Origin: Candidatus Omnitrophota bacterium
GTDB taxonomy: Bacteria > Omnitrophota > Gorgyraeia > Gygaellales > Profunditerraquicolaceae
Reading direction: 5' to 3'
Assembly: GCA_041650835.1 (NCBI GenBank)
Contig: JBAZKL010000006.1
Span: 1,449 to 65,448, forward strand
Length of the DNA stretch: 64,000 nucleotides
The notes under the pieces: model-generated
Told to the model about the DNA's origin: nothing
Database searches by the model: none
The model's input: only the letters and a program-made list of their open reading frames with translations
Made by a program: the position numbers and the translations under genes
Shown here: positions 188 to 46,104 of the stretch, piece by piece
Position numbering within the stretch: the first letter of the stretch is position 1
How the letters are laid out: every line of letters starts with the position of its first letter

Positions 188-2368
188 TCAACCGTTAAGC
201 TCTAAAAGCTCCTTTTCGGCCTTTTTACGGTCAGGAGTATCAACCGACCGGTAAAATTCCTGCGCCTGCTGAAAATACTCGCGCGCTTTATTCTTCTGCT
301 TTCGTTTTTTATACACGATCCCTAAATTAAAATTTACCGCCGCTAATTCCGGCTCTAATTGAGCGCTCCTGCAAATAAAAGCCGCCCGGGTGAAGAATTC
401 TTCGGCTTTCGGCAGGTTATCCATGTCCAGGTACCATTCGCCGATCATCGTATAATCGCCGGCAATATTAGGCACATTGCCTTCGCGCTCGTCGATCTTT
501 AAACCTTCCCGGTAACAATCAAGCGCGCGCTCGTATTGTTTTTCAAACAGATAGATCTCGCCAAGGTTAAAATAATAATCGCTAAGCTCATCCCGCAGGT
601 CCAATTTTCTAAACATTGCCTTGCTTTTATCATAAAAACTCCGGGCGAGCTCATGGTCGCCTTTATCGCTGAATAAAAGCCCCAGGTCAAAATAATCGCA
701 GGCCAGGTTATAGCGGTACCCCCGCAGATGCTGGCGTTCACGGTTTATCTCAGAGCTTTTTGTCAGTAATTCAAGCGCCTTATCGCCTTGCCCCTTATCA
801 ATATACCATAAAGCCAGTTTTCTCAAAGCACAAGCTTCTCCTAAACGGTCTTTTTGCCCGCGGCACAGCGATAAAGCTTTTTCATAAAAATCGAATGCTT
901 TCGGATATTCCCCTTTTTGATAATAAAGCCAGCCGATCGCGATATACGCTTCAGAGAGATGTTTATAATCCCGCTTTTTCTGGCTGTAATAGGCATATTC
1001 AAAACAACTTGCTAAAGCCCGGTCGCGGAGCCCCTGCTTTTGATACGCTTTCGCCATCGGCAGATATACAGGCAAGAACAAAGGATCATTATTCTTGACC
1101 TCTTCGTAAAGCAGCGCCGCGCTATTGTTGCTGCCTTGCCCCATCAACCTCGCGGACCGAAGCATCAACAGATGCGCCTGCGGGCTTACGGATGGTGAGT
1201 AATTCTGTAAAACTATGCCACAGGCAAAAACAAGCGCCCCCACGGAAGTTAAACACAAACATTTCTTAGGCACACCCTTAAAGGCCGCCGCATGATCCTG
1301 TTGTTGCCCCGCATCGAAGCTATAATCCGGATCGCCATAGAGCAGGTAACTTGACCAGAAAACTGAATGAGCGCCGTATACTTCCATCAACTTCAAACGC
1401 CCTAAACGGACGCATTCCCCGAGAGGTTTTTCCTTCAGCAGGTGCGAATAGAATTCACGGGAAAAGACCAGGCTCACCTGATCTTCGATCTTACGCAAGC
1501 TTCCGACATAATGCCTGACCCCCGACAATAAAAATGCCGACGCCAGGTCGTACTCCTTTCTTTGATAATCACCCGTATAGCCGCGGGCGCGATGACAGGC
1601 GTTTGAGAAGACCAGCGACGGTAACGGCATTGCTCCCGCCATATTCATGATATCGCTGACCGAGAATATCCCGTCATTGAGCAGCCAACCCGTCTTATCA
1701 GGGCCTGTCCCATCGGAAGCTCCGTGTCCGGCAAAATGAACGATGTCATAATCCCTGAAGCTCTTATGGACGTACAACGTATCAACCAGCGCCGATTTAA
1801 AATCAAGCGCCATATTTGTTTTTCTCTTCTTGAGCTCCTTCAAAATATACAGCCCTTCAGTATAGGCATATTTCAGGTCTCCGGTAGGGTCAGCCAGCAC
1901 GAGCATTTTCATTTTATCCGCGACATTTCTCGGACTTGCCAGCGGGCCCCTTTCCTGAGTCCTCATCATCCTTCCGACGCCGAACTTTAAGCTTAAAAAA
2001 TCATCTCCGTCGAACAAAAGCTCCCAGGGAATAGCGACCAATTCTTCATCCAGGCTTAATATGAGCCGCGATGGCGGCGATGCCCGCAGGCAGGCTTTAA
2101 CCTCGCGGGTTAATAAAGCGTCCCATAAGATCTGCCCGGCCTTTTTAAGCTGAAGGGTGAGATCAGGGTCAAAAATACTTTTGCTATTGGCGTTATTGAG
2201 CAGGGCGCAGATATCTTCGGATACAGCGGTTATTATAGGAAAAGGGACCGCTTGGAGGCTATAGTGCCGGATAGCACAGGCAATCTCACCTGTAGTAGTT
2301 ACACACATTTTAAGGTGCGGCTGATGGCACAGGATCTCCAAAATTAGAATATTTTGCTTATCCCCCAT
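188..2368 (-). CDS. CHAT-domain (caspase-like protease) / transmembrane / TPR-repeat protein
   Basis: 726 aa. N-terminal CHAT fold with His (VHFAGHG, ~aa 215) and Cys (FSNACHR, ~aa 258) forming a caspase-type dyad. Hydrophobic helix around aa 365-385. C-terminal half is a run of TPR-like repeats (Y/F...A...G pattern). Lies 15 nt downstream of the anti-sigma gene. Confidence 0.85.
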   Translation of the reverse strand: MGDKQNILILEILCHQPHLKMCVTTTGEIACAIRHYSLQAVPFPIITAVSEDICALLNNANSKSIFDPDLTLQLKKAGQILWDALLTREVKACLRASPPSRLILSLDEELVAIPWELLFDGDDFLSLKFGVGRMMRTQERGPLASPRNVADKMKMLVLADPTGDLKYAYTEGLYILKELKKRKTNMALDFKSALVDTLYVHKSFRDYDIVHFAGHGASDGTGPDKTGWLLNDGIFSVSDIMNMAGAMPLPSLVFSNACHRARGYTGDYQRKEYDLASAFLLSGVRHYVGSLRKIEDQVSLVFSREFYSHLLKEKPLGECVRLGRLKLMEVYGAHSVFWSSYLLYGDPDYSFDAGQQQDHAAAFKGVPKKCLCLTSVGALVFACGIVLQNYSPSVSPQAHLLMLRSARLMGQGSNNSAALLYEEVKNNDPLFLPVYLPMAKAYQKQGLRDRALASCFEYAYYSQKKRDYKHLSEAYIAIGWLYYQKGEYPKAFDFYEKALSLCRGQKDRLGEACALRKLALWYIDKGQGDKALELLTKSSEINRERQHLRGYRYNLACDYFDLGLLFSDKGDHELARSFYDKSKAMFRKLDLRDELSDYYFNLGEIYLFEKQYERALDCYREGLKIDEREGNVPNIAGDYTMIGEWYLDMDNLPKAEEFFTRAAFICRSAQLEPELAAVNFNLGIVYKKRKQKNKAREYFQQAQEFYRSVDTPDRKKAEKELLELNG

Positions 2369-2383
2369 AGGCTTAAAATAAGT

Positions 2384-3094
2384 TTAGGCAAGCCGCATAT
2401 TCAAGACGACCGTAGCAATAATTTTATTATCAACGGCTATGGCGGCGGTATAGCTTCCCGCAGCTACGTCTTCAAAGCATGCCCTGCCTGAATCAACACA
2501 ATAAGATTCTAATTCCACCCCTGCGCGCGAAAGCGTAACCCTAACATCTTTCCGTAAAGCCTTGCGGCCGGCACTATCTTTCAACAACACGCTCACCCTG
2601 GTAGTACGCTTGCGCTTATTTTCAATCCTGACCTCTAATCGCAGGCCTTTAAAATCATTACGAACTATCAGTTCATGCCGGGTTTTTCCTGATCTGGCGC
2701 TTCTCAAAACAGCTTCAGGGATAAATTCTCCTCCGGATAAGACTTCTCCCGTTGTATTGAGAAGCTCAAATGACCCCTCCTTAAGTAAGAGGCTAATTTC
2801 TAAAATATCCCGAATGATGCGCTCGCTCAAGAGTTTCTTGAGCGCTCGCAGGCGGCCGGGAGCAACAGCGATGTTCGCTGCCTCATCCAGCGGGACCGCA
2901 GCGGCAGCTTTTTCAGCGCAAGTTTCGCATAAAACGATATGCCGCTTAAACTCGCGGCTCTCTTCTTGAGAAAGCCCGCCGTCAAAAAAACAAGCGAATA
3001 CCGCGGCGTCAGGATGAGCTTGGGCCGGGTCAAATTTAGAACGCTTCCACATTCGATAAACCGACTTAATGAACACCTGTGTCTTTTCCCGCAT
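2384..3094 (-). CDS. Putative anti-sigma factor (zf-HC2 type) with C-terminal beta-rich domain
   Basis: 236 aa with an HxxxCxxC motif (RHIVLCETCAEK) typical of zinc-binding anti-sigma factors. Immediately downstream (29 nt) of an ECF sigma gene. No clear TM segment, so probably soluble. Confidence 0.55.
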   Translation of the reverse strand: MREKTQVFIKSVYRMWKRSKFDPAQAHPDAAVFACFFDGGLSQEESREFKRHIVLCETCAEKAAAAVPLDEAANIAVAPGRLRALKKLLSERIIRDILEISLLLKEGSFELLNTTGEVLSGGEFIPEAVLRSARSGKTRHELIVRNDFKGLRLEVRIENKRKRTTRVSVLLKDSAGRKALRKDVRVTLSRAGVELESYCVDSGRACFEDVAAGSYTAAIAVDNKIIATVVLNMRLA

Positions 3095-3123
3095 AGATCT
3101 TACCGGCCTTTCAAAGCTAAAAG

Positions 3124-3717
3124 CTAAACCATAAACCCCTTATGCTTAAAACATTCTCTCAAATCATCAATTATCCTGGTTTTGCGCATATCGATCGTCC
3201 CCCGGGAAACTTTAAGCAATCCTTTTAATTCATCCAAGCTTAAGCCTTGATTGATATACATCTCCAGAAAAAAACGCTCTTCCGTGCCTAAGCGTTCAAT
3301 GCAATCCCGCAGCAAAGCGAATTTTTCCTTGCTAAAGACACCTTCCGGGACCGTAAGGGATTCATCGACAATTGATTCTTCATCAAAAGATTGAGGATCA
3401 TCAATTGATACGAGATCCTTACGGCTGCGGATAAAATCAATTGTTTTATTTACAACGATCTGCCGCAGCCAGGTCGCAAAGCTGCAGCCGTTGCGCGATT
3501 GAAAGCTTTTGAGTTTTTTGAAATTATCATCTACAAGAGAAAGGAATATTTCCTGGAATAATTCATCAATTGTATCAGCACCGATATAACCGGCGCCCTT
3601 ATAACGCAAAACTGAAAAAATATAATTATAAATAAGGCGGGAATACCGCTCGAGGAACTTATCCCATGCCTGCCTATCCCCTTCAATACACTTTTGCACA
3701 AAATTCAAATCTTCCAT
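3124..3717 (-). CDS. ECF-type RNA polymerase sigma-70 family factor
   Basis: 197 aa. Region-2-like segment (YSRLIYNYIFSVL...ADTIDELFQEIFLSL) and region-4 HTH-like C-terminus (LSLDELKGLLKVSRGTIDMRKTRIIDDLRE). Size and layout fit an ECF sigma factor. Confidence 0.9.
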   Translation of the reverse strand: MEDLNFVQKCIEGDRQAWDKFLERYSRLIYNYIFSVLRYKGAGYIGADTIDELFQEIFLSLVDDNFKKLKSFQSRNGCSFATWLRQIVVNKTIDFIRSRKDLVSIDDPQSFDEESIVDESLTVPEGVFSKEKFALLRDCIERLGTEERFFLEMYINQGLSLDELKGLLKVSRGTIDMRKTRIIDDLRECFKHKGFMV

Positions 3718-5066: not shown

Positions 5067-6209
5067 ATGTTTATTCTCTTTCTATCGATAATCTTTTTCC
5101 GCCCGTTCATCTCTTCTTTAGCATACCCGCGGCTCAATTATTTTTATTCAACATACCTGGTTCTCTTCGCGCTGCTCTACGCTATCCTCAGGATCAGGCC
5201 CTTGCGTCATATGCGACGATTTATCCCCGCGATACTTTTATTCTGCCTGTCACTTGCCGTTTCCGTCCTGTTCTCGCTTCATCGTCAAAACAGTACCGCG
5301 GAGCTCTACAAATATATAAGCGCGCTGCTGCTCTTTTTCATCGCGGCAGGATTCACTCAACGCGAACGGCTTGTCTTTATCAACACGATGGTCATATACG
5401 GCGTTATACTCAGCATACTCGCGATTTACCAGTACTTTTTCGGCTACCTTAACCTCTTGCAATACGTGAAATCACACGGGATAAATGCCCCCTACATCAT
5501 TGAAACCCTCAACCAGAACAGGGCATATTTCCCTTTTGTCTCTCCTAATATGCTCGGAGGGTATGTCGGCATGCTTATCCCGCTAACGCTTATCAACGGC
5601 AAAAGAAGATGGGCAATTATCCCCTTACTCTTAACCCTTTTACTGACACGCTCTTTTGGCGCCATTACCAGCACTTTCTTAGGAATATGCATCTACACAT
5701 TATTACAGGCAAAGGTGCGTAAAATGATCGCGGCTATTCTGAGCGGGTTACTCCTGATCCTGGGGATCGTTATCATAATGCGCACGACTACGGCAAAAGA
5801 ACATATCCAACCCATTTTCTCGACTTTAGCGAGGCTCGATTATTGGAAAGCCACTCTCCCGATCATTTCTTTGGCACCCCTGACCGGAGTCGGCATAGGC
5901 AACTTTAACCTCGCCCAAACACGCTTCGCGCACAATTCATATTTACAGATCTGGGCTGAAATGGGCTTACCCGGACTTATCTCTTTGGTTTGGTTGATCT
6001 CACTCTCAGGGAAACAAGCTATGAACAACATACGCTTAAACCGGGAAGATTCACCCGCAACGATAGCGCTTTTATCTTCTGTATCTGTTTTTCTCATACA
6101 CAACATTATTGATTTCACGTTTTTCCTGCCGGAGGTGGCATTACTCTGGTGGATGCTCTTAGGGATGTCGATCAACGATGGAAACGATCATAGTCATACC
6201 GACCTATAA
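5067..6209 (+). CDS. O-antigen ligase / Wzy-like polytopic membrane protein
   Basis: 380 aa with ~10 predicted TM helices. Conserved Wzy_C-like segment (NSYLQIWAEMGLPGLISLVWL). One of only two plus-strand genes in the locus. Confidence 0.55.
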   Translation: MFILFLSIIFFRPFISSLAYPRLNYFYSTYLVLFALLYAILRIRPLRHMRRFIPAILLFCLSLAVSVLFSLHRQNSTAELYKYISALLLFFIAAGFTQRERLVFINTMVIYGVILSILAIYQYFFGYLNLLQYVKSHGINAPYIIETLNQNRAYFPFVSPNMLGGYVGMLIPLTLINGKRRWAIIPLLLTLLLTRSFGAITSTFLGICIYTLLQAKVRKMIAAILSGLLLILGIVIIMRTTTAKEHIQPIFSTLARLDYWKATLPIISLAPLTGVGIGNFNLAQTRFAHNSYLQIWAEMGLPGLISLVWLISLSGKQAMNNIRLNREDSPATIALLSSVSVFLIHNIIDFTFFLPEVALLWWMLLGMSINDGNDHSHTDL

Positions 6210-6903
6210 CGAGAAGGAAAATATCGCGCCTCTCTCAGAACGGATATTGGCCGTTCTTCCCCGGGTGAGGATACTTTTTGTCGATGATAATTCTCCTGAC
6301 GGAACAGGGGAAACCGCGGATAAACTCGCCCTGAATGACCCCCGCATCAGGGTCCTGCACAGGGAAAGAAAATCCGGCCTTGGGAAAGCTTACGTCGCCG
6401 GTTTCCGGGAAGCTTTGCGGTCACACCCGGATTATATAGTGCAAATGGACGCTGACTTTTCACACGACCCCGGATACCTGACGGAATTTCTCGCGGCTAT
6501 ACCGGAGGCGGACCTGGTCATCGGCACACGCTACGGTGAGGCCGCAAAAAGCCTCTCGCATAGTACCCGCTTAAGTTACTGCGCCAACTATTACACCCGG
6601 TTTATTTTAAACCTGCCTATCAGCGATACTTTGGGAGGGTTCAAATGTTTCAAAAGAAGGCTGCTGGAAGGGATTAACCTGGACACATTCATCTCTACCG
6701 GCTTTGTCTTCCAGGCGGAATTCATTTATAAGGCGTATAAAGCAGGATTCAAGATCAGGGAAATTCCCATCAACTTCTACCAAAGAAAGTCGGGAGCCAC
6801 AAAAAAATCGGCAAGCATTATCGCGGAAGCATTCTTCAAAATGCCGCTCATCAGGCTCATGAACGCTTTTAAAAGGATCCCTCGCGAAGAAAAAACCGGA
6901 TAA
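6178..6903 (+). CDS. Polyprenol-phosphate glycosyltransferase (Dpm1/GtrB-like GT2)
   Basis: METIIVIPTYNEKENI...ILFVDDNSPDGTGE...VQMDADFSHDP...GTRY matches dolichol/undecaprenyl-phosphate mannosyl/glucosyltransferases. Start overlaps the end of the preceding gene. Confidence 0.8.
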   Translation: METIIVIPTYNEKENIAPLSERILAVLPRVRILFVDDNSPDGTGETADKLALNDPRIRVLHRERKSGLGKAYVAGFREALRSHPDYIVQMDADFSHDPGYLTEFLAAIPEADLVIGTRYGEAAKSLSHSTRLSYCANYYTRFILNLPISDTLGGFKCFKRRLLEGINLDTFISTGFVFQAEFIYKAYKAGFKIREIPINFYQRKSGATKKSASIIAEAFFKMPLIRLMNAFKRIPREEKTG

Positions 6904-6951: not shown

Positions 6952-8331
6952 TTATTGAGCATACCCTAACGACCGCAACTGTTCTTTTTCTTGAATAGTC
7001 AGCGGTTCCTTTTCCGCGCGCGGCGCCCCCTTCCTCAAAAGGTCAAGCTCGTTCTTAAGAAGCTCGAATTTCTCACGGTCGACCAAAACCAGATTATTCA
7101 ACTCACCGGGATCAACTTGCAAATCATATAACTCATAACCCTTTCGATGGTCATAGATCAATTTCCAGCCATCAGCCCGGATAGCCGCCGCATCAGGACT
7201 TAACGCGCTAAAAGAGCGTGAATTATTATGGTCAAAACCATTCTTGAGCCCGGGCAGGAGGCTTTCCCCTATCATGCTCTTTGGTTGAGGGATACCCAGA
7301 AAATCAACGATCGTCGCGGCAATATCAATATGCCGGGCCAACGCCTGAACTTTTTCACCCCATGACCCCTCGCGCGCGGCCTTAATGACCAAAGGGACCC
7401 TGAGCAATTCGTCATAAAGCAGGAATCCATGGCTAAAGTACTGCCCATGTTCTCCCAGGCTTTCCGCGTGGTCAGCGCTCAATATGATCAGCGAGTTATC
7501 GTACAAGCCCAATTTCCTTAAATACCCTAAAACCTCGCCTACCTGGCTGTCGGCATAGCGTATCGAAGCATCATAGAGTTCAAGATAGAAATTCAGATCA
7601 GTGCGATTATCATGCGCGGCCGCCAAGCGCCCGGGGATACCGCCGAATCCATATAGATGATCAGCAGAAATAGGCACCTCAACCGGCTTGCGGCCCGGCA
7701 GCGGCGAAGCGATGAGCTCCCTGTATTTTGCCGCGGGAACCAGGGGATAGTGCGGCTCAAGGTAATGTATCCACACAAAGAACTTTTTCCGCTTATGCCC
7801 GTCCAGCCATTTTATGATCCTCGGATTGATATCAACAGCTTTAGCAGTCACCTTCTTATTATCGGAAAAAGTCCAGATCGTGTAAAAATCATCGAAGTCC
7901 TGATCAAAGCCTTTTATCGTTGCCAAACCCGGATGACTGCTGAAAAATCCGGTAGCAAAATTATTCTTTTTGAGCAAAGAGGTCAATGTCTCAATCCCTT
8001 CGGGGATTTTATCGCCGAAATCGAAAACCCCGTCACTTGATGGGTACCGCGAAGTCATAAGCGAAGCTAAAGCGGGAGCGGTAAAAGACGCATGCGCGAA
8101 AGCATTTGTAAAGACTGCGCCTTCTTTCGCGAACGCGTCGATATTCGGCGAAGTATTCACCGGATAACCGTAACAACCAAGATGGTCAGGCCGTAAAGCG
8201 TCCAGGGTGATCAAAACCACGCGCTGGGGCCCTCTGCTTTCCCGGTAAAAGCGTATTCCCAGGAACAAAAGAAAAATAACGGCTGTTACGGCTGAAATAC
8301 GAAAAAAATATTTTTTATTTTTCTTCATCAA
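6952..8331 (-). CDS. Sulfatase-family (alkaline phosphatase superfamily) membrane-anchored enzyme lacking the canonical formylglycine motif
   Basis: N-terminal TM helix. Metal-ligand block VVLITLDALRPDHLGCYGY and TNAF...SLMTSRYP align to arylsulfatases, but the C/S-x-P-x-R FGly motif is replaced by T-A-P-A-L. Confidence 0.75.
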   Translation of the reverse strand: MMKKNKKYFFRISAVTAVIFLLFLGIRFYRESRGPQRVVLITLDALRPDHLGCYGYPVNTSPNIDAFAKEGAVFTNAFAHASFTAPALASLMTSRYPSSDGVFDFGDKIPEGIETLTSLLKKNNFATGFFSSHPGLATIKGFDQDFDDFYTIWTFSDNKKVTAKAVDINPRIIKWLDGHKRKKFFVWIHYLEPHYPLVPAAKYRELIASPLPGRKPVEVPISADHLYGFGGIPGRLAAAHDNRTDLNFYLELYDASIRYADSQVGEVLGYLRKLGLYDNSLIILSADHAESLGEHGQYFSHGFLLYDELLRVPLVIKAAREGSWGEKVQALARHIDIAATIVDFLGIPQPKSMIGESLLPGLKNGFDHNNSRSFSALSPDAAAIRADGWKLIYDHRKGYELYDLQVDPGELNNLVLVDREKFELLKNELDLLRKGAPRAEKEPLTIQEKEQLRSLGYAQ

Positions 8332-10384
8332 TGTTCAATAAAGGCTTTCCCGGGGTATCAGGGGGAAACTGGATGCCGTATAACTTCAAGATAGTCGGAG
8401 ATAGATCTATTATCGCGGGCTCTGTAAGGCCAAGCTTTTTGTTGCTGAATATCACTCCCGGCACGAAATGCGGGTCGACCAAATGGTCGCCGCTCCATTT
8501 GCGCTTATTATCGTCGATGAGCGTCCGGGGAACCGCTCCTAACGCGGTCTGCCATGACGCGCGGTACCCCTGGTTAAACCCGACGAACAGGTCCGGGGCG
8601 TCGCCGGAGGCCTGCCCCTGGAATATCTCTTCCTGCAGATACACCGCGTATACGGCATTTTTGCCTGTTTTCTGGTCTATAAATGACAGGAGTTTTCCTT
8701 TTAATTCATTTTTCAGGGCTTTAACTTCAGATTCAGCGACGATCCCGTAATATTCCCTGGCTATTCTATTAAGGTAGATCCCTCCGAAACCCAAAGCATA
8801 TGCCTTTGTCTTTGACCAATCAATATTCTCCAGGAAGCCCGAGCTTTCCTCTGTACCCGGCTTAAGTGAGAGAAACCCCTGCTCCAAAAGCCACCGGTTA
8901 AGGTTGACCGACCGGCGAAAAGCGCTGAACCCGTGGTCAGAAAGGATAATGAGCACGGTATCTTTATCAAGCCCCTTAATGATCTTGCCCACCATCCGGT
9001 CAACTTTTTCATAATAGAGCGCGATAGTCTCTTTATAGCGGGCATCATTTTCATAAAGGGGATGCTCCTGATCGCGATACCGCCAAAACATGTGAGAAAT
9101 GACGTCAAGGGCCTCGAAATAATAAAAAAACAACCCTGATTTATGCTTTCGTAATTCATTGAAGCATATTTTCTCATGCTCACCTGTTATCTCATCAACC
9201 AGCTCCAGGAACGCGTGTTCATCAATACGCCCTTCAGTCAAAGCCCACGTGTCATACGGCATCCCTTGCGTGTAGAACAAGCCGTTTTCTTTCGCTAATT
9301 CACGGGACAGGCCTCCCGGGAAAGATATCCTAAAAAGCGGGCGCTCAGGATCAAAGTTGACCGGGCTGACATAAAGCTCAAGATCAGGAGTAATTGATCT
9401 CAGGTACATCCGAAGCACCCCATGCGCCTTACGGAACATTCCGATATCAAAAGACACCTTGACCCAGGCGCTCCAGGCGCCTTTTTTTAATTCGACGCTT
9501 TTCCCCTGCACGATAACGATAACCTTATTTTCCGCGGGGCGTAAAACGGCCTTAAGCGGGATCCGCGTTTCGACAGGGCTGCCGTTTGAAGCGACCATCG
9601 GGCCGTACAAATGATCCTCAAAACCGCCCCCATCGTCTTTGACCTGAATGATCCTACCCCTGCTCTCTCTATCTTCAGGCAACAAAGGCTTTGTAGTGTA
9701 AAAAGTGAATTTTCCCATCGTCCCCGAAATATCAGGGACACCCATACCGGAAAACATCTTTCCCATTACACGCTCAGGAGGAAAGGTGTTCGGGCAAAAA
9801 TAAATGTACGAAGGGACATTATTGCGGGAAAGGATGTTCCAGAAATTTTCGCCGTTTTTTCTATTGGTAATGACCACACCCCCGCCCTCACTATTGTTGT
9901 TGATCTCATTAAGTGCCAGATACGGGCTGTATTCGGCGGGGTTGCGCATGATAAAATCAAAGATCCCGTGGCTGCCCGGATTCTGCCCGGTCGAAAAGCT
10001 GGACCAGGCAACTATTGATTCGCTCGGATTAGTTGTAGCAAGGCGGGCATACGAACCCTTCGACTTCAAGGACGCCAGGTTCGCGAGCCTGCCTTCCCTC
10101 ATGAGTTCTTCGGTAATGTCCGCGGACATCGCGTCGATCCCTAAAACAACTACTTTTCTCTTATTACCCCCCGATATAGCTTTCATGATCAAAACTCCGC
10201 TGCTGATAAGGATTATAAGTAAAATACACGCCCCAATAAGCCTTTTCCGGGAGTTAAACCTGTGTTTGAAAAAAAACACCAGGCTGCCGAACACACCGGC
10301 CAATGCCCCTAAAAAAAGCGATGAATTCTGCCCGAATACAAAGCCCGAACCCGGATCGATATAATTAAATAAAAACTTATGCAT
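8315..10384 (-). CDS. Type I phosphodiesterase / nucleotide pyrophosphatase (NPP)-like alkaline phosphatase superfamily enzyme, membrane anchored
   Basis: 689 aa with two N-terminal TM helices. VVVLGIDAMSADITEELMREGRLANLASL...TTNPSESIVAWSSFSTG and ILSDHGFS blocks are typical of the AlkP/NPP core. Start overlaps the sulfatase-like gene stop. Confidence 0.7.
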   Translation of the reverse strand: MHKFLFNYIDPGSGFVFGQNSSLFLGALAGVFGSLVFFFKHRFNSRKRLIGACILLIILISSGVLIMKAISGGNKRKVVVLGIDAMSADITEELMREGRLANLASLKSKGSYARLATTNPSESIVAWSSFSTGQNPGSHGIFDFIMRNPAEYSPYLALNEINNNSEGGGVVITNRKNGENFWNILSRNNVPSYIYFCPNTFPPERVMGKMFSGMGVPDISGTMGKFTFYTTKPLLPEDRESRGRIIQVKDDGGGFEDHLYGPMVASNGSPVETRIPLKAVLRPAENKVIVIVQGKSVELKKGAWSAWVKVSFDIGMFRKAHGVLRMYLRSITPDLELYVSPVNFDPERPLFRISFPGGLSRELAKENGLFYTQGMPYDTWALTEGRIDEHAFLELVDEITGEHEKICFNELRKHKSGLFFYYFEALDVISHMFWRYRDQEHPLYENDARYKETIALYYEKVDRMVGKIIKGLDKDTVLIILSDHGFSAFRRSVNLNRWLLEQGFLSLKPGTEESSGFLENIDWSKTKAYALGFGGIYLNRIAREYYGIVAESEVKALKNELKGKLLSFIDQKTGKNAVYAVYLQEEIFQGQASGDAPDLFVGFNQGYRASWQTALGAVPRTLIDDNKRKWSGDHLVDPHFVPGVIFSNKKLGLTEPAIIDLSPTILKLYGIQFPPDTPGKPLLNIDEEK

Positions 10385-10390
10385 CCACTC

Positions 10391-11632
10391 CTATGAGATC
10401 ATTCCTACCGCTTCAATATCTCCCTCTTGCCCGCGCAACACAAACCTTCCTAAACTGCCGGCGGAAACGCTGTCCGCGGTCACTAACGGGTTTTCAGTTG
10501 AAACGATGATTTGCGCCAAGGTATTCTCTTCCAAGTGCCTGCGAGTTACCGTTATCTCCCGCATATCGGATGTTTCCCACGCGCGCGTTATCTCACTCAG
10601 GCGCGCCGGCGTTTCTTGAGTGCCGCACTTAAGATCATACCGGGCATCCTGGCGCAGCTGTTTCAGGCAAAAGATCTTTGCCGGAAACTCGCGGCGCACA
10701 ACCAGGCTATCGCAGCCGCAAATAACATCACCGCGCTTAAGGCAGGCCATATCACGCAATATGAGTCCCGCCCCGAAAGGGGCACTGGCATTTCTCACCG
10801 GCCTGTCCAATGCTACTATTTTCTCTACCCTGTTTTTAGTATTGCCGGGCAGAACGCGGCATGGTGACCTTAAAACAACGCTCCCGTGCGCCAGAGGGCC
10901 CACGGCGACTTTTTTCTTGTTCAGATGATAAATATCCTGGACTAAAAAAACAAACCCCGCGTTATCAAACACGGAGTGAGCCGCAAAAAGCTTCCCGCTG
11001 AAAGCTTCAGAGCTTAGAACTTCAATGAGTGAAAGGCCATTATACCATTCCATGAGCTTTGACGGTATGATAAGATTTTCCCCCTGTTTTGCCGATATCG
11101 GCACAAAGGATCCCGGGGCTAAATGAATTGATTTGAGGAACATTTCAATACCGGCTTTGCCCCTTTCAAACGCCTGCTCCTGGAAACCAACCGCGTCCAT
11201 CTTATTAAGGGCCACCACAACGCTCTTTATACCGAGAAATTCCAAAATAAAGGCCTGCCTCCTGGTCTGCTCCGCTATCGGCTTGCCGGCATCGACTACC
11301 AGCACCGCCGCGTCCGCCTGAGACGAGCCGCTGAGCATATTATGGAGCAGCTCCTGGTGGCCGGGGACGTCAATAAAAACCATCTCCAGGCCGTTCCTGG
11401 CTTTACAAAAAACCTGCGTTGTATCGATCGTGCGCTCTTCATGACGCTCTTCTTCAAGGCTGTCCAGCAAATAAGCGAACTCAAAATCCCGCCCCAAACG
11501 TTGGCAGGCAAGGGAAACTTCATCCACCATATGACGGGAAAGCGGGTTCAATTCCGATAAAAGCCTTCCGATCAAAGTCGATTTCCCCGAATCAACATCC
11601 CCCGTTACGACTATCCGTAAATATTTATTCAT
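10391..11632 (-). CDS. cysN: Sulfate adenylyltransferase subunit 1 (CysN-type GTPase), no fused APS kinase domain
   Basis: G1 motif VTGDVDSGKST and G3 DVPGHQ, NKMD G4. 413 aa, so GTPase plus beta-barrel domains only. A 5-nt gap separates it from cysD. Confidence 0.85.
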   Translation of the reverse strand: MNKYLRIVVTGDVDSGKSTLIGRLLSELNPLSRHMVDEVSLACQRLGRDFEFAYLLDSLEEERHEERTIDTTQVFCKARNGLEMVFIDVPGHQELLHNMLSGSSQADAAVLVVDAGKPIAEQTRRQAFILEFLGIKSVVVALNKMDAVGFQEQAFERGKAGIEMFLKSIHLAPGSFVPISAKQGENLIIPSKLMEWYNGLSLIEVLSSEAFSGKLFAAHSVFDNAGFVFLVQDIYHLNKKKVAVGPLAHGSVVLRSPCRVLPGNTKNRVEKIVALDRPVRNASAPFGAGLILRDMACLKRGDVICGCDSLVVRREFPAKIFCLKQLRQDARYDLKCGTQETPARLSEITRAWETSDMREITVTRRHLEENTLAQIIVSTENPLVTADSVSAGSLGRFVLRGQEGDIEAVGMIS

Positions 11633-11636
11633 GGCT

Positions 11637-12458
11637 TTACATATATCCTAACGACCGTAATTTCTGCATCATATACGCTTTTTCTTTATCCTGGACGCGC
11701 CCGGACCTCTCAGCGACGGCAGTAACGTTGAGCTCGCTCACGATCTTTTCCAGGCTGTCGGCAGATGATGCTACCGGTTGGCAGCAGCATTCACAACCGA
11801 TACTCCGGTAGCGTTGCCCTTTACGCGCAAAATAGAGGCTGACGACGGGAAGTTTTTCCTGTTTGATATACTTCCATATATCGATCTCTCTCCACCCCAG
11901 GAGCGGGTGGACCCTGAAGTGGCTTTCTTTATTTCCCCGGGTCTTATAATGCTCTGACCACAACTCCATGGACTGATTGCCATAATCCCATTTAAACTCT
12001 TTATCGCGCAGTGAAAAACACCTTTCTTTCGCCCTGATCGCGTGCTCATCCCTTCGTATAGCAACCAGTAAAGCCTTTAATCCCCGCGCTTCCACTATCT
12101 GCTTAAGCGCTTCTGTTTTTAAAGCATGACAGCACTCAAACCTGCCCTGCGAGGGAGAGATACGCTTATTGAGCGCTTCATCATTACGCGCGATGAGCAG
12201 GTCCAAACCCCATTTCCGGGCGTAACGCCTGCGAAAATCATAGATCTGTTTAAATTTAAATGTCGTATCGATATGTATGACGGGAATAGGAACCGTGCCG
12301 AGGAAGGCCTTACGCGCCAAATGCACCAATACCGTGGAATCCTTTCCCATGCTCCACAAAAGCGCTAACGCGCCGCGGTATTGCCAATACGCTTCCCTGA
12401 TGATGTAAATACTCCGGCTTTCCAGTTCAGTTAAATATAAGTTCTTTTTCATCAGCAC
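11637..12458 (-). CDS. cysD: Sulfate adenylyltransferase subunit 2 (CysD, PAPS-reductase-like ATP pyrophosphatase fold)
   Basis: PP-loop SMGKDSTV. Conserved CysD blocks (ELESRSIYIIREAY, WEHALLG-like LLGWREIDIWKYI). 273 aa. Confidence 0.85.
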   Translation of the reverse strand: MLMKKNLYLTELESRSIYIIREAYWQYRGALALLWSMGKDSTVLVHLARKAFLGTVPIPVIHIDTTFKFKQIYDFRRRYARKWGLDLLIARNDEALNKRISPSQGRFECCHALKTEALKQIVEARGLKALLVAIRRDEHAIRAKERCFSLRDKEFKWDYGNQSMELWSEHYKTRGNKESHFRVHPLLGWREIDIWKYIKQEKLPVVSLYFARKGQRYRSIGCECCCQPVASSADSLEKIVSELNVTAVAERSGRVQDKEKAYMMQKLRSLGYM

Positions 12459-12467
12459 ACGGATCGC

Positions 12468-13346
12468 TTATTTACAAAGCATGCCCCGCAAAGGCCCCGG
12501 CCCCGAGACGCAGGAGCGGCGCATGTATTTGTTGGTTATAAATAAATACGCTGTTCTCGGCAGGTCATACGCGCACGCCGTAAAAACATCGTCCCAAAAA
12601 AACCGTTTATCGTTCTTAGAGATCAATAAGCGCCTGTTCTTAAAACAAAGGTATTGCCGCAACTTCTTATCAGCCCGTGAACTATTCCCCTGATGAAAAC
12701 ATTCCGCCTGAGGATAATACCACGCGCTGTACCCGCTCCTGCGCGCTCTCCATGCCAGGTCAACATCTTCAACGAGGAAGAAAAATCTTTCATCAAAAAA
12801 TCCGGTCTCTTCCTTGACCTTCAAAAGCATCGCCTTCTTATACACTGCCGCGGCGGCGCAGGCCCCAAAGACGGGTTTACGCCTGCTGAAGGCCGCTCCA
12901 TCGCGGCGGCCGCTGCCGATATCGCGGAACCTGCGAAAATAAGTAAGCTCTATTCCGGCGGAATATATCGTCTTCTTATCAACGCGCAAGATCTTAGGCT
13001 GTATGATCCCCGTATCCGGCGGCAAAGAGGCGATCGCCTTCTTTACCTGGGCGAGGAAATCCTCACCCAGGACACAATCGCAATCCAAGGTTAAAACCCA
13101 ATCTCCCCCGCACGCTTCTATCCCCTGGTTCCTCGCTCCGGCTGCCCCAAGGTTAGAGGCATTTTCGATAAGTTTAACGCGCGGATACGCGCTTCTTATA
13201 AAACCCGCGGTGCCGTCCTGAGAGCCGTTATCGACGACAATGAGCTCATGATCATGGCATCCCTGGGCCTCAAGCGAACTTAAAGCGGCTTTGAGGAACT
13301 CAATGCTATTGCAGGTTATAATTACGATTGAGAGCATCCCACTCAT
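12468..13346 (-). CDS. Family 2 glycosyltransferase
   Basis: LSIVIITCNSIEFLKAALSSLEAQGCHDHELIVVDNGSQDGT... is a classic GT2 N-terminus. The 5' end overlaps the upstream rSAM gene, so the true start may be an internal Met. Confidence 0.8.
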   Translation of the reverse strand: MSGMLSIVIITCNSIEFLKAALSSLEAQGCHDHELIVVDNGSQDGTAGFIRSAYPRVKLIENASNLGAAGARNQGIEACGGDWVLTLDCDCVLGEDFLAQVKKAIASLPPDTGIIQPKILRVDKKTIYSAGIELTYFRRFRDIGSGRRDGAAFSRRKPVFGACAAAAVYKKAMLLKVKEETGFFDERFFFLVEDVDLAWRARRSGYSAWYYPQAECFHQGNSSRADKKLRQYLCFKNRRLLISKNDKRFFWDDVFTACAYDLPRTAYLFITNKYMRRSCVSGPGPLRGMLCK

Positions 13347-21329: not shown

Positions 21330-23252
21330 TTAGTCGGTAAAACAAGGCAGCAGGCATGGCGACGGACAACCCGCGGCCTTGCGGCGCGCCTGTCCCGCCG
21401 CGGGAGCATGAAAGATCCGCGAGAGCGGCTCTTTACGGATATTCCCGTAACAATCAAAACAGGTCGTTGTATCCCCGGTATAGGCGACAAGCATCGTTCT
21501 TTCCGCGTTACGGCACTGTATATCGCGATTGTGGAGCGTGCCGCGAAAATATTTTTTTACCAACTCCAGGTTATTCTCCGAATTCCTCAAAAACGCGCTG
21601 TTTTTCTTTTTAAAAGCAACGATATCATCGATCGCTTTATCAAGGACCGGCAGCCTTTCCGCCGGGACCCAATATTTAACCTGAGATCCCCTGTCTTTCA
21701 AGATCCGGTTATTGGAAAGTAACGGCTGAAACTGCAAAGAATCGGCACGCAACGATAAAATTGTATCCGCGATCGCCCTCAACTCTTCCAGGTTCCCGTT
21801 AAGTATGATCGTGATGACATTAAAATTTATACCCGGGGAGGTTTTTTTCCTCTCAGAAAGCATTTTTATGCCCGCGAATGTTTTTTCAAAGCTCCCCCTC
21901 AAACCGCGGATCTCATCATGCACCTGAGGGCGCAAGCTATCCAGAGAAATGCACAGCGATAACGAACCGCTTGTTAAATACGGCAGGAGCTTCCCCAGGA
22001 AATCTTGGGTGAGTAAAATACCGTTTGTCAGTATGCCGACGCGATACTTGCTTTGCTTAACAAAATCAAGGATCGGAAAGATATCGGGACGGATAAGCGC
22101 TTCCCCTCCGGAGAGCACAAAGTCCTTTACTCCCCAATCGATCGCCTGCGCGATAAGACCTTTCACTTCCTGCGTGGTATATTCAAGGATAGGCTTGTCT
22201 TTCCTTATATCGCAAATCGCGCAGGACAGGTTACAACGGTGCGTAATATCCAGTATGATAGTTTCCGGCCTTTCAAGGGTGAAGTTCGCGGGCGGACATT
22301 GCGCGTTCGGCGTTGCCGGGGCAATTTTTCTGAGCGTAAAATATTCCCTCAGATTACCGGACAAATACACGGCTTTATGCAGCATGAAATACGCGAAAAC
22401 CTGAACGCTCCTGTAAAACCCGCGTACTTTGTGTTTTTTTATTAACGAGGCCCCTAAGGTATAAGCAAAACGCGGTATTTTAAGAAAATTAACTATCGTT
22501 GCCCCTGAGAAAAAAAAGATATTATCCGTTCTTATCTCTTTTAACAGAGGATGGTCTTGATGGAAATGCTTGACCCGGCAATTACCTCTGCCGTACAAAT
22601 ATGCCTGGCGGACAAACGACCTCAGGTTCATTGAGCAATTATGGATGACCGCGACGTCCTTGCTATAAACAAACCTGCCTCCGGACTTATGCAACCTCCA
22701 GAAAAATTCCAGGTCCTCTCCTGCAGGAAAACAAAAACTCTCGGCGAATTGCCCGGACACGGAGCTTTTTTTAAAAGAAACATTGCAGGTGGGGAAAAAA
22801 ATTATTCTTTTCTCACCTTTGATATCGGCGAAGATCGCTCCGTCGCTTAAAGACTGGCTCACCAGGGCTTTTACGTTACGCTTATCAACGCAGGTTGCCC
22901 CCCCGACAACGTCCGCCCGCGGGTCGATTGCGTGCGCGTTAAGCATCGCGCGCGCCCATGAAGCCGTTAAGCTGCAATCGTCATCAGTAAACCCGACTAT
23001 GCCGGCTTTGGACTGTTTGACCCCGAAATTCCTGGCAGCTGCCGGGCCATGATTGTCCTGATAGTAATACCTCAGTCGGGGAAAAACAGGCTTTAACGCT
23101 TCAACCATCTCTTTAGTCCCGTCGGTCGAGCCGTCATCAACAACAATTATTTCAAAGCGCTCAGCGGGATAATCCTGGGCAAAAATAGATTCCAGGCAGG
23201 CTTTAAGCTTGTTTTTACGGTTAAATGTCGGGACAACTATAGAAATATCCAT
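21330..23252 (-). CDS. Bifunctional fusion: N-terminal family 2 glycosyltransferase + C-terminal radical SAM/SPASM enzyme
   Basis: N-terminus ISIVVPTFNRKNKLKACLESIFAQDYPAERFEIIVVDDGSTDGT...FTDDDC is GT2. From ~aa 330, ITHRCNLSCAICDI (CxxxCxxC) and C-terminal CFDCYGN...CPSPCLLPCF SPASM-like cysteines. 640 aa. Confidence 0.85.
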   Translation of the reverse strand: MDISIVVPTFNRKNKLKACLESIFAQDYPAERFEIIVVDDGSTDGTKEMVEALKPVFPRLRYYYQDNHGPAAARNFGVKQSKAGIVGFTDDDCSLTASWARAMLNAHAIDPRADVVGGATCVDKRNVKALVSQSLSDGAIFADIKGEKRIIFFPTCNVSFKKSSVSGQFAESFCFPAGEDLEFFWRLHKSGGRFVYSKDVAVIHNCSMNLRSFVRQAYLYGRGNCRVKHFHQDHPLLKEIRTDNIFFFSGATIVNFLKIPRFAYTLGASLIKKHKVRGFYRSVQVFAYFMLHKAVYLSGNLREYFTLRKIAPATPNAQCPPANFTLERPETIILDITHRCNLSCAICDIRKDKPILEYTTQEVKGLIAQAIDWGVKDFVLSGGEALIRPDIFPILDFVKQSKYRVGILTNGILLTQDFLGKLLPYLTSGSLSLCISLDSLRPQVHDEIRGLRGSFEKTFAGIKMLSERKKTSPGINFNVITIILNGNLEELRAIADTILSLRADSLQFQPLLSNNRILKDRGSQVKYWVPAERLPVLDKAIDDIVAFKKKNSAFLRNSENNLELVKKYFRGTLHNRDIQCRNAERTMLVAYTGDTTTCFDCYGNIRKEPLSRIFHAPAAGQARRKAAGCPSPCLLPCFTD

Positions 23253-25969: not shown

Positions 25970-26749
25970 TTATATATTCTTTAATATCCTGTTCTCCAGG
26001 CGGGAGAAAACGATAAAGCCCAGGATAACGCTTATGACAGACCAGCAAAAAACGCCCCGGATCAACAAGGCGTCGGGGATAACGCCGTAATAAAGGATTT
26101 TCTGATAAGAAAGAATGAACGGGACCATTGGGTTAAAATTAAATATCCACTGGAACCGCTCGGGCATGACATCGACCGAATAAAAAACAGGAGTAAGCCA
26201 AAACAGGAACATGAGCGCCACCGACAGTAAATAAACGATATCCCGGAATAAAACGGTAAGGACTGACAAAAGCAGCCCCAGCCCCAGCAGCAAAACCAGA
26301 TGAAAAAGAAATATAACGGATAAAACCGGCGCCAGAAGGATTATTTTCGGGTTAAAAAACAAGAAAACCGGGAATAAAACCAGCCAACCGATCAGGAAGT
26401 TAAGGAAATGCGCCAGGACCGAGCTTAACGGCAGGATCTCCCTGGGCAGGTTAAACTGCCGTAATATATTAAGTTGATTCAAGATAGAACCCGCTGATTC
26501 CGTCAAAGCGTTTGAGAAAAACATCCAGGGTATAATGCCCGAAAAAATAAAGAGAGGAAAATTACGCATCTCCACCTTAAAAACACAGGTAAAAACAAAT
26601 GTTATGACCGACATGATCAAAAAAGGGCTGATCAAAGAAGCATATATCCCGGTAAAGGAAGAAGCATAACGCGCCTTTAACTGGGATATCGCCATGTCCC
26701 AGAGCGTGTGCCGGTAAAGAAAAAGCGCTTTGAGCCTGCCGTGTATCAT
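25970..26749 (-). CDS. wzm: ABC-2 type transporter permease (Wzm-like)
   Basis: 259 aa with six hydrophobic helices. Immediately upstream of, and abutting, the ATPase gene. Confidence 0.8.
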   Translation of the reverse strand: MIHGRLKALFLYRHTLWDMAISQLKARYASSFTGIYASLISPFLIMSVITFVFTCVFKVEMRNFPLFIFSGIIPWMFFSNALTESAGSILNQLNILRQFNLPREILPLSSVLAHFLNFLIGWLVLFPVFLFFNPKIILLAPVLSVIFLFHLVLLLGLGLLLSVLTVLFRDIVYLLSVALMFLFWLTPVFYSVDVMPERFQWIFNFNPMVPFILSYQKILYYGVIPDALLIRGVFCWSVISVILGFIVFSRLENRILKNI

Positions 26750-41916: not shown

Positions 41917-41932
41917 ATTTACTATAACAGGA

Positions 41933-42964: not shown

Positions 42965-42972
42965 ACTCCAAG

Positions 42973-43347
42973 TTAATCCAGAGCTTTCTTAATCGTATCA
43001 AGTAATTTATCTATATCAAAAGGTTTATAAATATATGCAACTGGCTCAAGTTTTTTTGCTTTTGCTTCAACTTCTTCGTCTGCGTAACCCGTTATAAAAA
43101 TCACAGGGATCCTTTTATTTTTCTCCTTTGACTGATTTATATAAATCTGGGTTAATGTTTCTACACCATTCATTCCCGGCATACGAATATCTGCTAAAAC
43201 AAGGTCAAAATCCTCTTCTTCTGTCATTATAAGCGCATCTTGGCTATTTTTAGTAACAAAGACTTCATATCCGTTCTTCTCAAGTAACTTTGAAAGAGAC
43301 TTAATTATCAACTCCTCATCATCAATTACCAGGATCTTCTTTGCCAT
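42973..43347 (-). CDS. Single-domain response regulator (CheY-like receiver)
   Basis: 124 aa. KILVIDDE... phospho-acceptor region DLVLADIRMPGMNG and a conserved K (YIYKPF). Confidence 0.9.
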   Translation of the reverse strand: MAKKILVIDDEELIIKSLSKLLEKNGYEVFVTKNSQDALIMTEEEDFDLVLADIRMPGMNGVETLTQIYINQSKEKNKRIPVIFITGYADEEVEAKAKKLEPVAYIYKPFDIDKLLDTIKKALD

Positions 43348-43579
43348 CGTAAATTCTCCTATTTATGATAAAAAAACGCTTTAACCCGCTGTAATTATTA
43401 CTATTATAATTATAACATATTGAACAAGTTAGACAAATAAAGAAAAACATGACACCCCTATTTCCGGGAACATGCTTATACTTGCGGCAGTTTTACATCG
43501 ATAAAGATTATTTCAGGTTGTGTAGAAATATTACAATGAATTACTTCCAGTGCTTAGAAGTAAATAAGTGCGGGCTGAG

Positions 43580-44492: not shown

Positions 44493-44524
44493 CAGGACAA
44501 TACCCTTAATCTTGATAGTAGGAG

Positions 44525-46072: not shown

Positions 46073-46104
46073 CAATGTGTCCCCAGAATTGTACGGAATT
46101 GATG

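Follow-up and report, generated by a model that had tools for sequence, protein, structure and literature searches.

Biological O-sulfation that has been well characterised follows, to our knowledge, only two routes: transfer from 3'-phosphoadenosine 5'-phosphosulfate (PAPS) by enzymes of the sulfotransferase fold, and shuttling from aryl sulfates by arylsulfate sulfotransferases (ASSTs), for whose bacterial members we know of no established natural donors. The NodPQ-NodH and CysDNC-Stf systems take the first of these, with an adenosine 5'-phosphosulfate (APS) kinase, carried by NodQ or by CysNC fusions, acting together with a PAPS-dependent sulfotransferase. Within the alkaline phosphatase (AlkP) superfamily, membrane-anchored transferases such as LtaS, EptA (MCR), OpgB and BcsG modify the glycans of the envelope by way of a covalent intermediate on Thr or Ser, and the known members of the LtaS/EptA type move phospho-alcohol groups from phospholipids, not sulfate. 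Nucleotide pyrophosphatases/phosphodiesterases (NPPs) cleave AMP-X anhydrides, and APS is AMP-sulfate; we know of no NPP that is gene-linked to sulfate activation. In the two-step sulfation of caprazamycin, sulfate passes from the PAPS sulfotransferase Cpz8 to an aryl-sulfate carrier and from there to the PAPS-independent ASST Cpz4 (PMC4257720). The ascamycin (Acm) cluster combines cysD, cysN, an APS kinase and an essential sulfatase-family gene, and knock-out of acmG abolishes production (PMC4257720). Here we analyse a 64,000-nucleotide stretch of DNA from a Candidatus Omnitrophota bacterium (GenBank assembly GCA_041650835.1, contig JBAZKL010000006.1, positions 1,449 to 65,448 of the forward strand; the whole stretch is hereafter the window), in which genes resembling the sulfate-activation pair cysD and cysN run directly into two genes for AlkP-superfamily enzymes. 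We give roughly even chances to the proposition that these four genes represent one instance of a sulfate-handling module that is widespread but undescribed and is set here in an ABC-transporter-type glycan operon.

All four genes lie closely packed on the minus strand, as an earlier note on this DNA had read them from its letters. The string begins with the cysD-like gene (11637..12458), which encodes 273 amino acids (aa) from GTG and belongs to the CysC-less, module-type clade described below; the public gene call starts two codons in, at ATG (12452), giving 271 aa. It continues with the cysN-like GTPase gene (10391..11632), whose product has the 413 aa given in that note and likewise no fused APS-kinase domain (CysC). 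The NPP-type (PF01663) AlkP-superfamily gene follows (8315..10384; 689 aa), the constant partner in the module, and the string closes with a sulfatase-fold gene (6952..8331; PF00884 plus SGSH_C; 459 aa from TTG, the next codon being ATG). Of the spacings in the note, the 6 nt between the cysN stop and the NPP-like start and the overlap between the last two genes, here placed at 14-17 nt, are correct, and the cysD-cysN gap of 5 nt becomes 4 nt on measurement. Its N-terminal hydrophobic anchors on both AlkP-superfamily enzymes are recovered in AlphaFold2 (AF2) models and hydropathy profiles as two helices in the NPP-like and one in the sulfatase-like protein, and its placement of the operon among glycosyltransferase genes is borne out on both sides. 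A family 2 glycosyltransferase (GT2) gene of the same gene string lies 9 nt upstream of cysD (12468..13346, minus strand; PF00535, 5.3e-27), and a convergent GT2 gene at 6178..6903 on the plus strand (PF00535, 1.5e-30) resembles polyprenyl-phosphate hexose synthases, with weak, sub-cutoff NCBIfam matches to AglJ, PpgS and dolichyl-phosphate hexose transferase. Counts of internal promoters and terminators around the four genes equalled the shuffled expectation and are hence uninformative.

The CysD-like protein matches PF01507 (1e-38) and passes the cutoff of the NCBIfam CysD subfamily model NF003587 (306.8 bits, cutoff 195), scoring below cutoff in the equivalog and subfamily models NF009214 (248 vs 413) and TIGR02039 (232 vs 397). 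Its PP-loop, S36-M-G-K-D-S, is intact and of the SxGKDS type, and its closest entry in the PDB is the CysD chain 1zun_A (5e-58), relative to which about 30 residues are missing. The CysN-like protein matches GTP_EFTU (1.9e-32) with the G1 (GDVDSGKS), G3 (DVPGH) and G4 (NKMD) motifs all intact. It falls under the CysN cutoffs (223 vs 336 bits in TIGR02034; 219 vs 590 in NF003478), EF-1alpha models of NCBIfam score it nearly as well as the CysN models do, and its closest PDB entry is the CysN chain 1zun_B (8.5e-50, vs 1.9e-45 for aEF1-alpha). The two chains matched by the pair are thus those of one entry, 1zun, the structure of CysDN from P. syringae. By these similarities the pair is predicted to be an ATP sulfurylase that makes APS from sulfate, and sulfate as the anion it activates is supported by the TauE/TSUP, Sat/CysC, ASST and sulfatase-fold neighbours of its relatives.

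The same wiring recurs widely. On three public contigs with close NPP-like homologs the order is invariably PAPS_reduct, GTP_EFTU and Phosphodiest, usually with one or more sulfatase-family genes next; all eight sulfatase-family neighbours on these contigs carry Thr at the formylglycine (FGly) position, and two of the eight lack an N-terminal anchor. Glycan-gene surroundings similar to those of the window module are found in loci L001 and L003. A scan of one genome per species returned at least 579 matching stretches, from which 80 loci were fetched; 42 of these, with at least 4 kb on both sides, are treated as fully flanked. The labels of the loci include Omnitrophota, Elusimicrobia, Spirochaetota, Auribacterota, Latescibacterota, Deltaproteobacteria, Nitrospirae, Armatimonadota and others. 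Of the 42 fully flanked loci, 28 have a CysN-like gene at most 5 kb away from the NPP-like gene and 27 a CysD-like gene at most 6 kb away; the genomes with the CysN linkage are labelled Omnitrophota, Spirochaetota, Auribacterota, Deltaproteobacteria and others. The closest relatives have the order cysD>cysN>NPP and a clade of 42-47% identity the order NPP> <cysN<cysD; that the linkage is preserved through this rearrangement argues for a functional link between cysDN and the NPP-like enzyme. The activating step is replaced non-homologously in L049, a Latescibacterota locus, where the genes after the NPP-like gene encode not CysDN but a Sat-type ATP sulfurylase (PF01747 + PUA_2) and an APS kinase.

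Further partners are variable. ASST-like genes (PF14269/PF05935) adjoin the NPP-like gene in 10 loci, although the window itself holds no ASST gene. In five loci (L027, L030, L033, L042 and L067) the ASST-like gene occupies the interval from cysN to the NPP-like gene and shares the strand of cysN, giving the order cysD>cysN>ASST, and in L050 its open reading frame (ORF) overlaps that of cysN; a signal-peptide-like start is present in all four ASST-like N-termini that were read (L030, L033, L042 and L050). Eleven loci contain TauE/SafE (TSUP) permease genes, placed in four cases between cysD and cysN. Sulfatase-fold genes with 4-6 transmembrane segments are found near the module in six loci (L047, L051, L043, L026, L035 and L065); in L047 such an ORF overlaps the cysN ORF on the cysN strand, and in L026, L043 and L051 there is no cysDN within the flank read. 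None of the Pfam families that are frequent around module loci is a sulfotransferase family. Beta-propellers resembling NHL/Vgb_lyase flank the cysD-cysN-NPP trio in L002 (6022..7962 and 12232..13215) and L014 (1356..3482). In one lineage of three related genomes, L030 (6165..9373), L033 and L042, genes pstC-pstA-pstB-phoU lie directly upstream of the NPP-like gene; this adjacency could tie the module to phosphate limitation or be coincidence. The importer permeases of these three loci were considered as the sulfate importer CysTWA, and since they were identified as PstC, PstA, PstB and PhoU they provide no evidence for sulfate import.

To separate the window's cysDN from canonical pairs, we used a metagenome scan with a CysN alignment, which picked up generic GTPase patterns and returned mostly canonical CysN(C), as a control and not as a census of the module. 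The control sample comprised 63 CysN-seeded loci with a CysD match, divided into 52 canonical and 11 window-type loci by a score of at least 330 bits against the window's CysD, a threshold that was picked post hoc and to that extent weakens the case made from the division. Canonical loci carried a CysC domain in 43 of 52 cases, mostly as CysN-CysC fusions, and never a PF01663 neighbour (0/52), whereas the window-type clade had CysC in 0/11 and PF01663 neighbours in 7/11, together with TauE in 3/11 and an ASST in 1/11. Fisher tests of the CysC and PF01663 contrasts gave p = 3e-7 and 6e-7, respectively. All PF01663 neighbours occurred at CysD scores of at least 332 bits, and of the 41 NPP-seeded loci that have a CysD, 38 reached at least 330 bits as well. 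The cysDN of the window very probably belongs, then, to a dedicated CysC-less clade that is functionally coupled to PF01663 enzymes.

Genes for the canonical continuations of sulfate activation were sought around the module. In the window, phmmer searches found no APS kinase, with the Pfam-verified CysC of L049 as query, and no Sat-type ATP sulfurylase; a search of all window ORFs with the CysD-like protein gave no second ORF of the PAPS_reduct family (CysH-like); and Pfam scans of window ORFs of at least 120 aa revealed no sulfotransferase, a scan that small or very divergent genes could escape. Among the called genes within 10 kb beyond each window end (ENA contig k141_856013) there was again no APS kinase, PAPS reductase or sulfotransferase, so that these statements on gene absence cover 84 kb, and a sulfite reductase gene (sir) was not found within the same span. 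The earlier remark that the window has neither APS kinase nor PAPS reductase therefore holds over a wider region, and cysC, cysH and sir, named there as the neighbours that would mark ordinary assimilation, were looked for across the 84 kb and not found.

The NPP-like protein matches PF01663 at 132.7 bits against a gathering threshold of 23. It has 3,765 homologs at E<1e-5, those that carry a source name being from Omnitrophota, and its family comprises 2,246 clusters at 50% identity (E<=1e-30). The single sequence found no match in the PDB at E<0.01 (phmmer). Its AF2 model (mean confidence, pLDDT, 82.2; pTM 0.82) has as Foldseek neighbours ENPP1, Xac NPP and the phosphonoacetate hydrolase PhnA, at about 1e-9 and 10-14% identity. 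Across 33 homologs of 51-84% identity, D84, D427, H431, D483, H484 and H634 are invariant, and from the alignment these residues may be assigned individual roles in the metal site. The predicted catalytic nucleophile is Ser123 (codon at 10016..10018, minus strand), which is S or T in all 33. In the family profile P-x-E-[ST] aligns with the ENPP1 segment P-T-K-T(nucleophile)-F-P-N-H, and SDHG with the SDHG of NPPs; the nucleophile position is Ala in the T238A mutant entry 6aek.

The N-terminus of this protein is distinctive. A two-helix hydrophobic hairpin at residues ~21-70 (10175..10324, minus strand; H21-42 and H47-70 in AF2), with a peak 19-residue hydropathy of 2.84, is conserved family-wide, and it is preceded by the motif Y8-I-D-P-G-S-G14 (10343..10363, minus strand), in which Y8, D10 and G14 are invariant among the 33 homologs. 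The motif is shared with the cysDN-linked relatives in L046 and L047 and with L049, and the cysDN-linked long form always shows Y-x-D-P-G-x-G followed by two helices. Written more fully, the sequence before the hairpin is Y-[VI]-D-P-G-[ST]-G-F, modelled by AF2 with low confidence. Its invariant Tyr beside Asp recalls tyrosine-sulfation sites, a resemblance only. The thought that Tyr8 serves as a sulfotyrosine carrier across the membrane was left as speculation: since two helices place the N-terminus and the catalytic domain on the same side, Tyr8 alone cannot carry sulfate across. A second, shorter PF01663 subfamily (~410-530 aa) was encountered beside or between module-type cysD and cysN (L003, 6980..8572; L089, 1600..2889; L091, 3322..4428; L132, 7717..9138; L128, 2380..3768; L034, 9425..10759), some members being soluble and some having lipoprotein-like signals.

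The last gene of the string encodes a protein with the complete architecture of a sulfatase. It matches PF00884 at 155.2 bits and has the SGSH_C C-terminal subdomain, its closest PDB sequences are S1 sulfatases (1e-32), and its AF2 model (pLDDT 87.9), with one N-terminal helix (H5-31), retrieves the full two-subdomain fold in Foldseek, with template-modelling scores of ~0.7 to S1/carbohydrate sulfatases and phosphonate monoester hydrolases. In alignment with 5g2v and 7p24, T84-A-P-A-L88 (8068..8082, minus strand) stands in place of the C/S-x-P-x-R FGly motif. The loss of this motif, already remarked in the earlier note, is family-wide: among 121 homologs the FGly position is Thr in 118, Ser in three and Cys in none, the position of the motif's Arg is L/V/I/M/N/F, and the second Asp of the sulfatase 'DD' metal pair is replaced by A/S/T. 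The metal ligands, whose inspection that note had advised, otherwise persist, D44, D287 and H288 being invariant; D49, T84 (Thr/Ser) and H301 are also kept in the 121 sequences, and H50 in 120 of them, so that the family is evidently strongly constrained. Judged by these residues, the protein is not a decayed sulfatase: it would combine the scaffold of a sulfatase with a nucleophile and metal ligands arranged as in LtaS, EptA and other Thr-type transferases, although the NCBIfam models of EptA and LtaS score it far below cutoff, with matches to EptA, LtaS and YejM all sub-cutoff. Both AlkP-fold proteins of the window look like active enzymes. The sulfatase-like gene is the looser partner of the two, found no more than 5 kb from the NPP-like gene in half of the fully flanked loci (21 of 42) and occurring also alone in glycan loci. 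A radical S-adenosylmethionine (radical-SAM) protein of the SPASM type was considered as an anaerobic sulfatase-maturating enzyme (anSME) acting on the sulfatase-like protein, including by oxidation of Thr, and was rejected on its score in TIGR03942 (66.6 vs 349 bits). The SPASM proteins of the locus match NirJ/AhbD-like NCBIfam models better than anSME, and no FGly-generating maturase (anSME or FGE) is identifiable among them with NCBIfam.

We propose, with belief and doubt about evenly balanced, that the four genes form a dedicated PAPS-independent sulfation module in which the NPP-like enzyme replaces APS kinase and sulfatase- or ASST-fold enzymes deliver sulfate to envelope glycans. A biosynthetic sulfation role for the module, taken by itself, we favour somewhat more readily. 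The narrower claim that the NPP-like enzyme takes APS directly as its sulfuryl donor is tentative and falls a little short of an even chance, and it is more doubtful still whether the AlkP-superfamily enzymes, the NPP-type with two transmembrane helices and the Thr-type sulfatase-fold protein, represent a new PAPS-independent sulfotransferase class with sulfate relayed across the membrane and distributed by sulfatase-fold or ASST-fold enzymes that would in part be periplasmic. In the scheme we envisage, the CysD/CysN-like pair would, by homology, convert sulfate and ATP to APS with GTP hydrolysis as the driver. The NPP-type enzyme, tethered by its hairpin, would consume APS in place of APS kinase, taking the sulfuryl group onto Ser123 with its metal site and releasing AMP, and would hand sulfate to a membrane-associated acceptor, either a lipid-linked glycan bound for the Wzm/Wzt exporter or a carrier. 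The final envelope acceptor would be sulfated by variable enzymes, the Thr-type sulfatase-fold protein in the window and a polytopic sulfatase-fold or secreted ASST-like protein elsewhere, a second step modelled on the two-step sulfation of caprazamycin and on transferases of the LtaS/EptA/BcsG type. The NPP-like gene is highly conserved and single-copy and the second-step enzymes are multiple and divergent, a pattern that fits one universal maker of the donor serving variable transferases.

The side of the membrane on which these steps might occur is indicated chiefly by relatives of the window proteins. Soluble short PF01663 paralogs overlap the cysN stop codon (L089 and L091) or directly precede cysD (L132 and L128), and in L001 two anchor-less sulfatase-fold genes follow the NPP-like gene. 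Because PF01663 paralogs lacking transmembrane segments and signals are coupled to cysN, and because the sulfatase-fold genes of L001 are anchor-less, we think it fairly probable that the CysDN product is used in the cytoplasm; the ASST-like partners and the polytopic sulfatase-fold ones, by contrast, would have their place in a later step beyond the membrane. Within the NPP family, members of the Nitrospirae type, without transmembrane segment or signal, and members with classical signal peptides (L073 and L081) are not cysDN-linked. The central idea of the earlier note, a non-canonical use of cysDN with two ectoenzymes acting on APS, stands in part, as regards the dedicated linkage; its picture of two ectoenzymes that both use APS is on weaker ground, APS being cytoplasmic and the relatives including cytoplasmic forms.

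Several considerations weigh against this proposal. Enzymes of the AlkP superfamily with Ser/Thr nucleophiles are typically phosphoryl and not sulfuryl transferases, and attack by an NPP on the phosphorus of APS would be mere hydrolysis. We know of no characterised member of the PF01663 NPP-like family and of no sulfated glycan from these organisms. Topology is equivocal: NPP-family members with and without signal peptides both exist, and the positive-inside count is ambiguous for both window proteins, the NPP-like protein having a K/R-rich loop between its helices as well as a K-rich stretch after helix 2. The N-terminus of the sulfatase-like protein (KKNKK, then a hydrophobic helix) has the look of a signal anchor of N-in, C-out orientation, which would put its catalytic domain outside, away from APS. 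As to gene neighbourhoods, 14 of the 42 fully flanked loci have no cysDN nearby, glycosyltransferases are common yet not universal neighbours, and the pstCAB-phoU genes before the NPP-like gene in one lineage hint at a phosphate role. The APS kinase of L049, finally, leaves PAPS as a possible donor, and a cysC gene could lie elsewhere in the genome.

The alternative that survives best, though we regard it as rather unlikely, is organosulfate scavenging, in which the NPP-like, sulfatase-fold and ASST-like enzymes, secreted or anchored, would free or shuffle sulfate from esters outside the cell, the TSUP permease would import it and CysDN would activate it for an APS reductase and a sulfite reductase encoded elsewhere. 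Hydrolase folds, permease and activation, that is, each recurrent part, can be lined up in such a linear uptake pathway, some family members have signal peptides, the sulfatase-like N-terminus is like a signal anchor, and the pst-phoU genes of L030, L033 and L042 suggest a nutrient-acquisition setting. The chemistry fits less well: the FGly motif needed for efficient hydrolysis of sulfate esters is absent family-wide, without an anSME-type maturase to be seen, and ASSTs transfer sulfate, not hydrolyse its esters. Nor does the genetic setting favour uptake, as cysH, sir and cysC were not seen in ~80 module loci (the Sat and CysC of L049 apart), canonical cysDN loci mostly carry CysC (43/52), cysN is coupled to PF01663 and sulfatase-fold members of cytoplasmic type, and the module in the window is part of an operon for glycan assembly.

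Conventional PAPS chemistry, served by an unlinked cysC and sulfotransferase, would leave the NPP-like enzyme either to use PAPS or to clear PAP, AMP, APS or pyrophosphate (PPi) and so to pull the unfavourable ATP sulfurylase reaction forward. NPP enzymes do cleave nucleotide pyrophosphate bonds, ENPP1 and Xac NPP are the nearest folds, Sat and CysC adjoin the NPP-like gene in L049, and the search for cysC and sulfotransferase genes covered 84 kb of this contig. We nevertheless consider this reading quite unlikely, given that CysC is found in 0/11 module-type against 43/52 canonical loci and that no sulfotransferase Pfam family occurs among the top neighbour families or in the 84 kb; a 689-aa, membrane-tethered, 55%-conserved protein with large insertions, moreover, exceeds what a by-product hydrolase would need.

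Phosphate chemistry on the glycan, whether phosphodiester trimming or transfer of phospho-head groups in the manner of LtaS, EptA and BcsG, would reduce the cysDN link to co-regulation, for instance in a phosphate/sulfate swap. The active sites speak for it, as Ser/Thr nucleophiles with a D...T...D-H metal site are a signature of phosphoryl transfer, and so do the sub-cutoff matches to EptA, LtaS and YejM, the polytopic LtaS-like relatives, the pst-phoU adjacency in one lineage and the occurrence of the sulfatase-like family alone in some glycan loci. It is distinctly unlikely in our view, leaving unexplained why PF01663 genes stand beside CysC-less cysDN and never beside canonical cysDN, why start and stop codons overlap with cysN, and why Sat/CysC, ASST and TSUP genes are neighbours. 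Chance placement of an ordinary assimilatory cysDN in the glycan locus, for which one may cite that the CysD-like protein clears the cutoff of NCBIfam's CysD subfamily model, is very improbable and is rejected on neighbourhood statistics (28 of 42 loci show the linkage, which spans several phyla and both gene orders), on the CysN-seeded control, where the clade's neighbours differ from canonical ones (PF01663 in 7/11 vs 0/52), and on the absence of cysC, cysH and sir from 84 kb.

Should the proposed PAPS-independent module be correct, its consequences would reach beyond this locus. It suggests a third route of sulfation in which PAPS is skipped and hydrolase scaffolds act as transferases, and if the AlkP-fold enzymes prove to be sulfotransferases their enzymology would be categorically new, constituting a new sulfation enzyme class and offering PAPS-free sulfation catalysts. 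It could also reveal where bacterial ASSTs obtain their natural donor, a pathway long missing, would mean that many metagenome annotations of 'cysDN' and 'sulfatase' may be biosynthetic and not assimilatory or catabolic, and predicts sulfated envelopes in Omnitrophota and other candidate phyla. The module is not rare, with at least 579 stretches, and most of its members are in uncultured anaerobic phyla; found in hundreds of uncultured bacteria, this wiring is probably the sign of a route, not yet described, by which sulfate is attached to molecules of the cell envelope.

The surrounding glycan assembly locus spans ~4.0-30.2 kb of the window by Pfam and NCBIfam scans. It encodes five GT2 enzymes, one fused to radical-SAM/SPASM, a Wzy_C-like protein, a WecA/MraY-like GT4 and a GT1, together with an amine-oxidase-like flavoprotein, a Wzm/Wzt (TagGH-like) exporter and at least six radical-SAM genes. 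The ABC exporter (23252..26749, minus strand) is recognised by ABC2_membrane and ABC_tran, with sub-cutoff matches to TagH and Wzt/RfbE. In its Wzt/TagH-like ATPase (23252..25969, minus strand; 905 aa) the ABC match takes up only the first ~240 residues, and the C-terminal part of ~650 aa, which has no family match, may be a glycan-end-recognition domain. The fusion protein is a 640-aa ORF (21330..23252, minus strand) with GT2 at residues 4-127 and beyond and radical-SAM/SPASM at 336-633; at least five further radical-SAM genes lie in the glycan operon, three with B12-binding domains. Immediately upstream of the operon is a membrane H+-pyrophosphatase (30356..32539, minus strand; PF03030, 903 bits), whose removal of PPi would favour both nucleotide-sugar synthesis and ATP sulfurylase.

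The rest of the window holds genes of other kinds. Beside the glycan locus, at 188..3717 on the minus strand, are a CHAT-protease/TPR protein (726 aa), for which Peptidase_C25 is also listed, a family-less 236-aa ORF and an ECF-type sigma factor. Positions 40001..48000 have a G+C content of 0.35-0.43 against ~0.48 elsewhere and may be horizontally acquired; this stretch holds family-less ORFs (41933..44194 and 46105..46728) and lies just upstream of toxin-like genes. The latter form a Tc-toxin-like set (46689..57094, minus strand), unusual cargo for a small-genome Omnitrophota bacterium, which consists of a 1135-aa SpvB plus Ig-like protein, a family-less 258-aa ORF and a 2047-aa protein with TcdB_toxin_midN, FG-GAP, cadherin/PKD, RHS repeats and a TEN_YD-shell. 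At 59869..63075 (minus strand) an EF-G-family GTPase of 1068 aa has its EF-G domains from residue ~377, preceded by an N-terminal extension of ~370 aa that has no Pfam match.

Neither this module nor sulfotransferases that have the AlkP fold and depend on APS turned up in literature searches, and the comparison with described systems falls out differently for each of its parts. Like NodPQ-NodH of rhizobia and CysDNC-Stf of mycobacteria, which sulfate Nod factors and glycolipids, the locus is proposed here to dedicate a CysD/CysN-type sulfurylase to the sulfation of an envelope or secreted glycoconjugate, and not to making cysteine, and to encode it with the modifying enzymes; it differs in that the window has neither APS kinase nor PAPS sulfotransferase and that the partners are AlkP-superfamily enzymes. 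With caprazamycin it would share the logic of a two-step carrier, and ASST-like genes recur in related loci, whereas the window has no PAPS sulfotransferase, type III polyketide synthase or ASST and the proposed first enzyme is of the NPP type. The ascamycin and nucleocidin sulfamate clusters similarly group cysD/cysN-like genes with sulfatase-family genes, but their product is a nucleoside sulfamate, an APS kinase and a sulfotransferase are encoded alongside, and a PF01663 enzyme is lacking. Set against the NPP/ENPP enzymes, the NPP-like protein keeps the core fold and the positions of nucleophile and metal ligands and departs from them in its 10-14% identity, its insertions (~140-380), its YxDPGxG motif and its two-helix hairpin. 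The sulfatase-like protein shares with S1 sulfatases the full two-subdomain fold and its best sequence matches, and is set apart from them by the family-wide replacement of the FGly motif, its Arg and the second metal Asp and by the lack of an identifiable maturase. Its single D/E...T...D-H metal site is that of LtaS, EptA, OpgB and BcsG, and some of its relatives combine 4-6 transmembrane segments with a catalytic domain; the window protein, in contrast to LtaS and EptA, has one helix and not five and is much nearer, in sequence and fold, to S1 sulfatases and to phosphonate monoester hydrolases.

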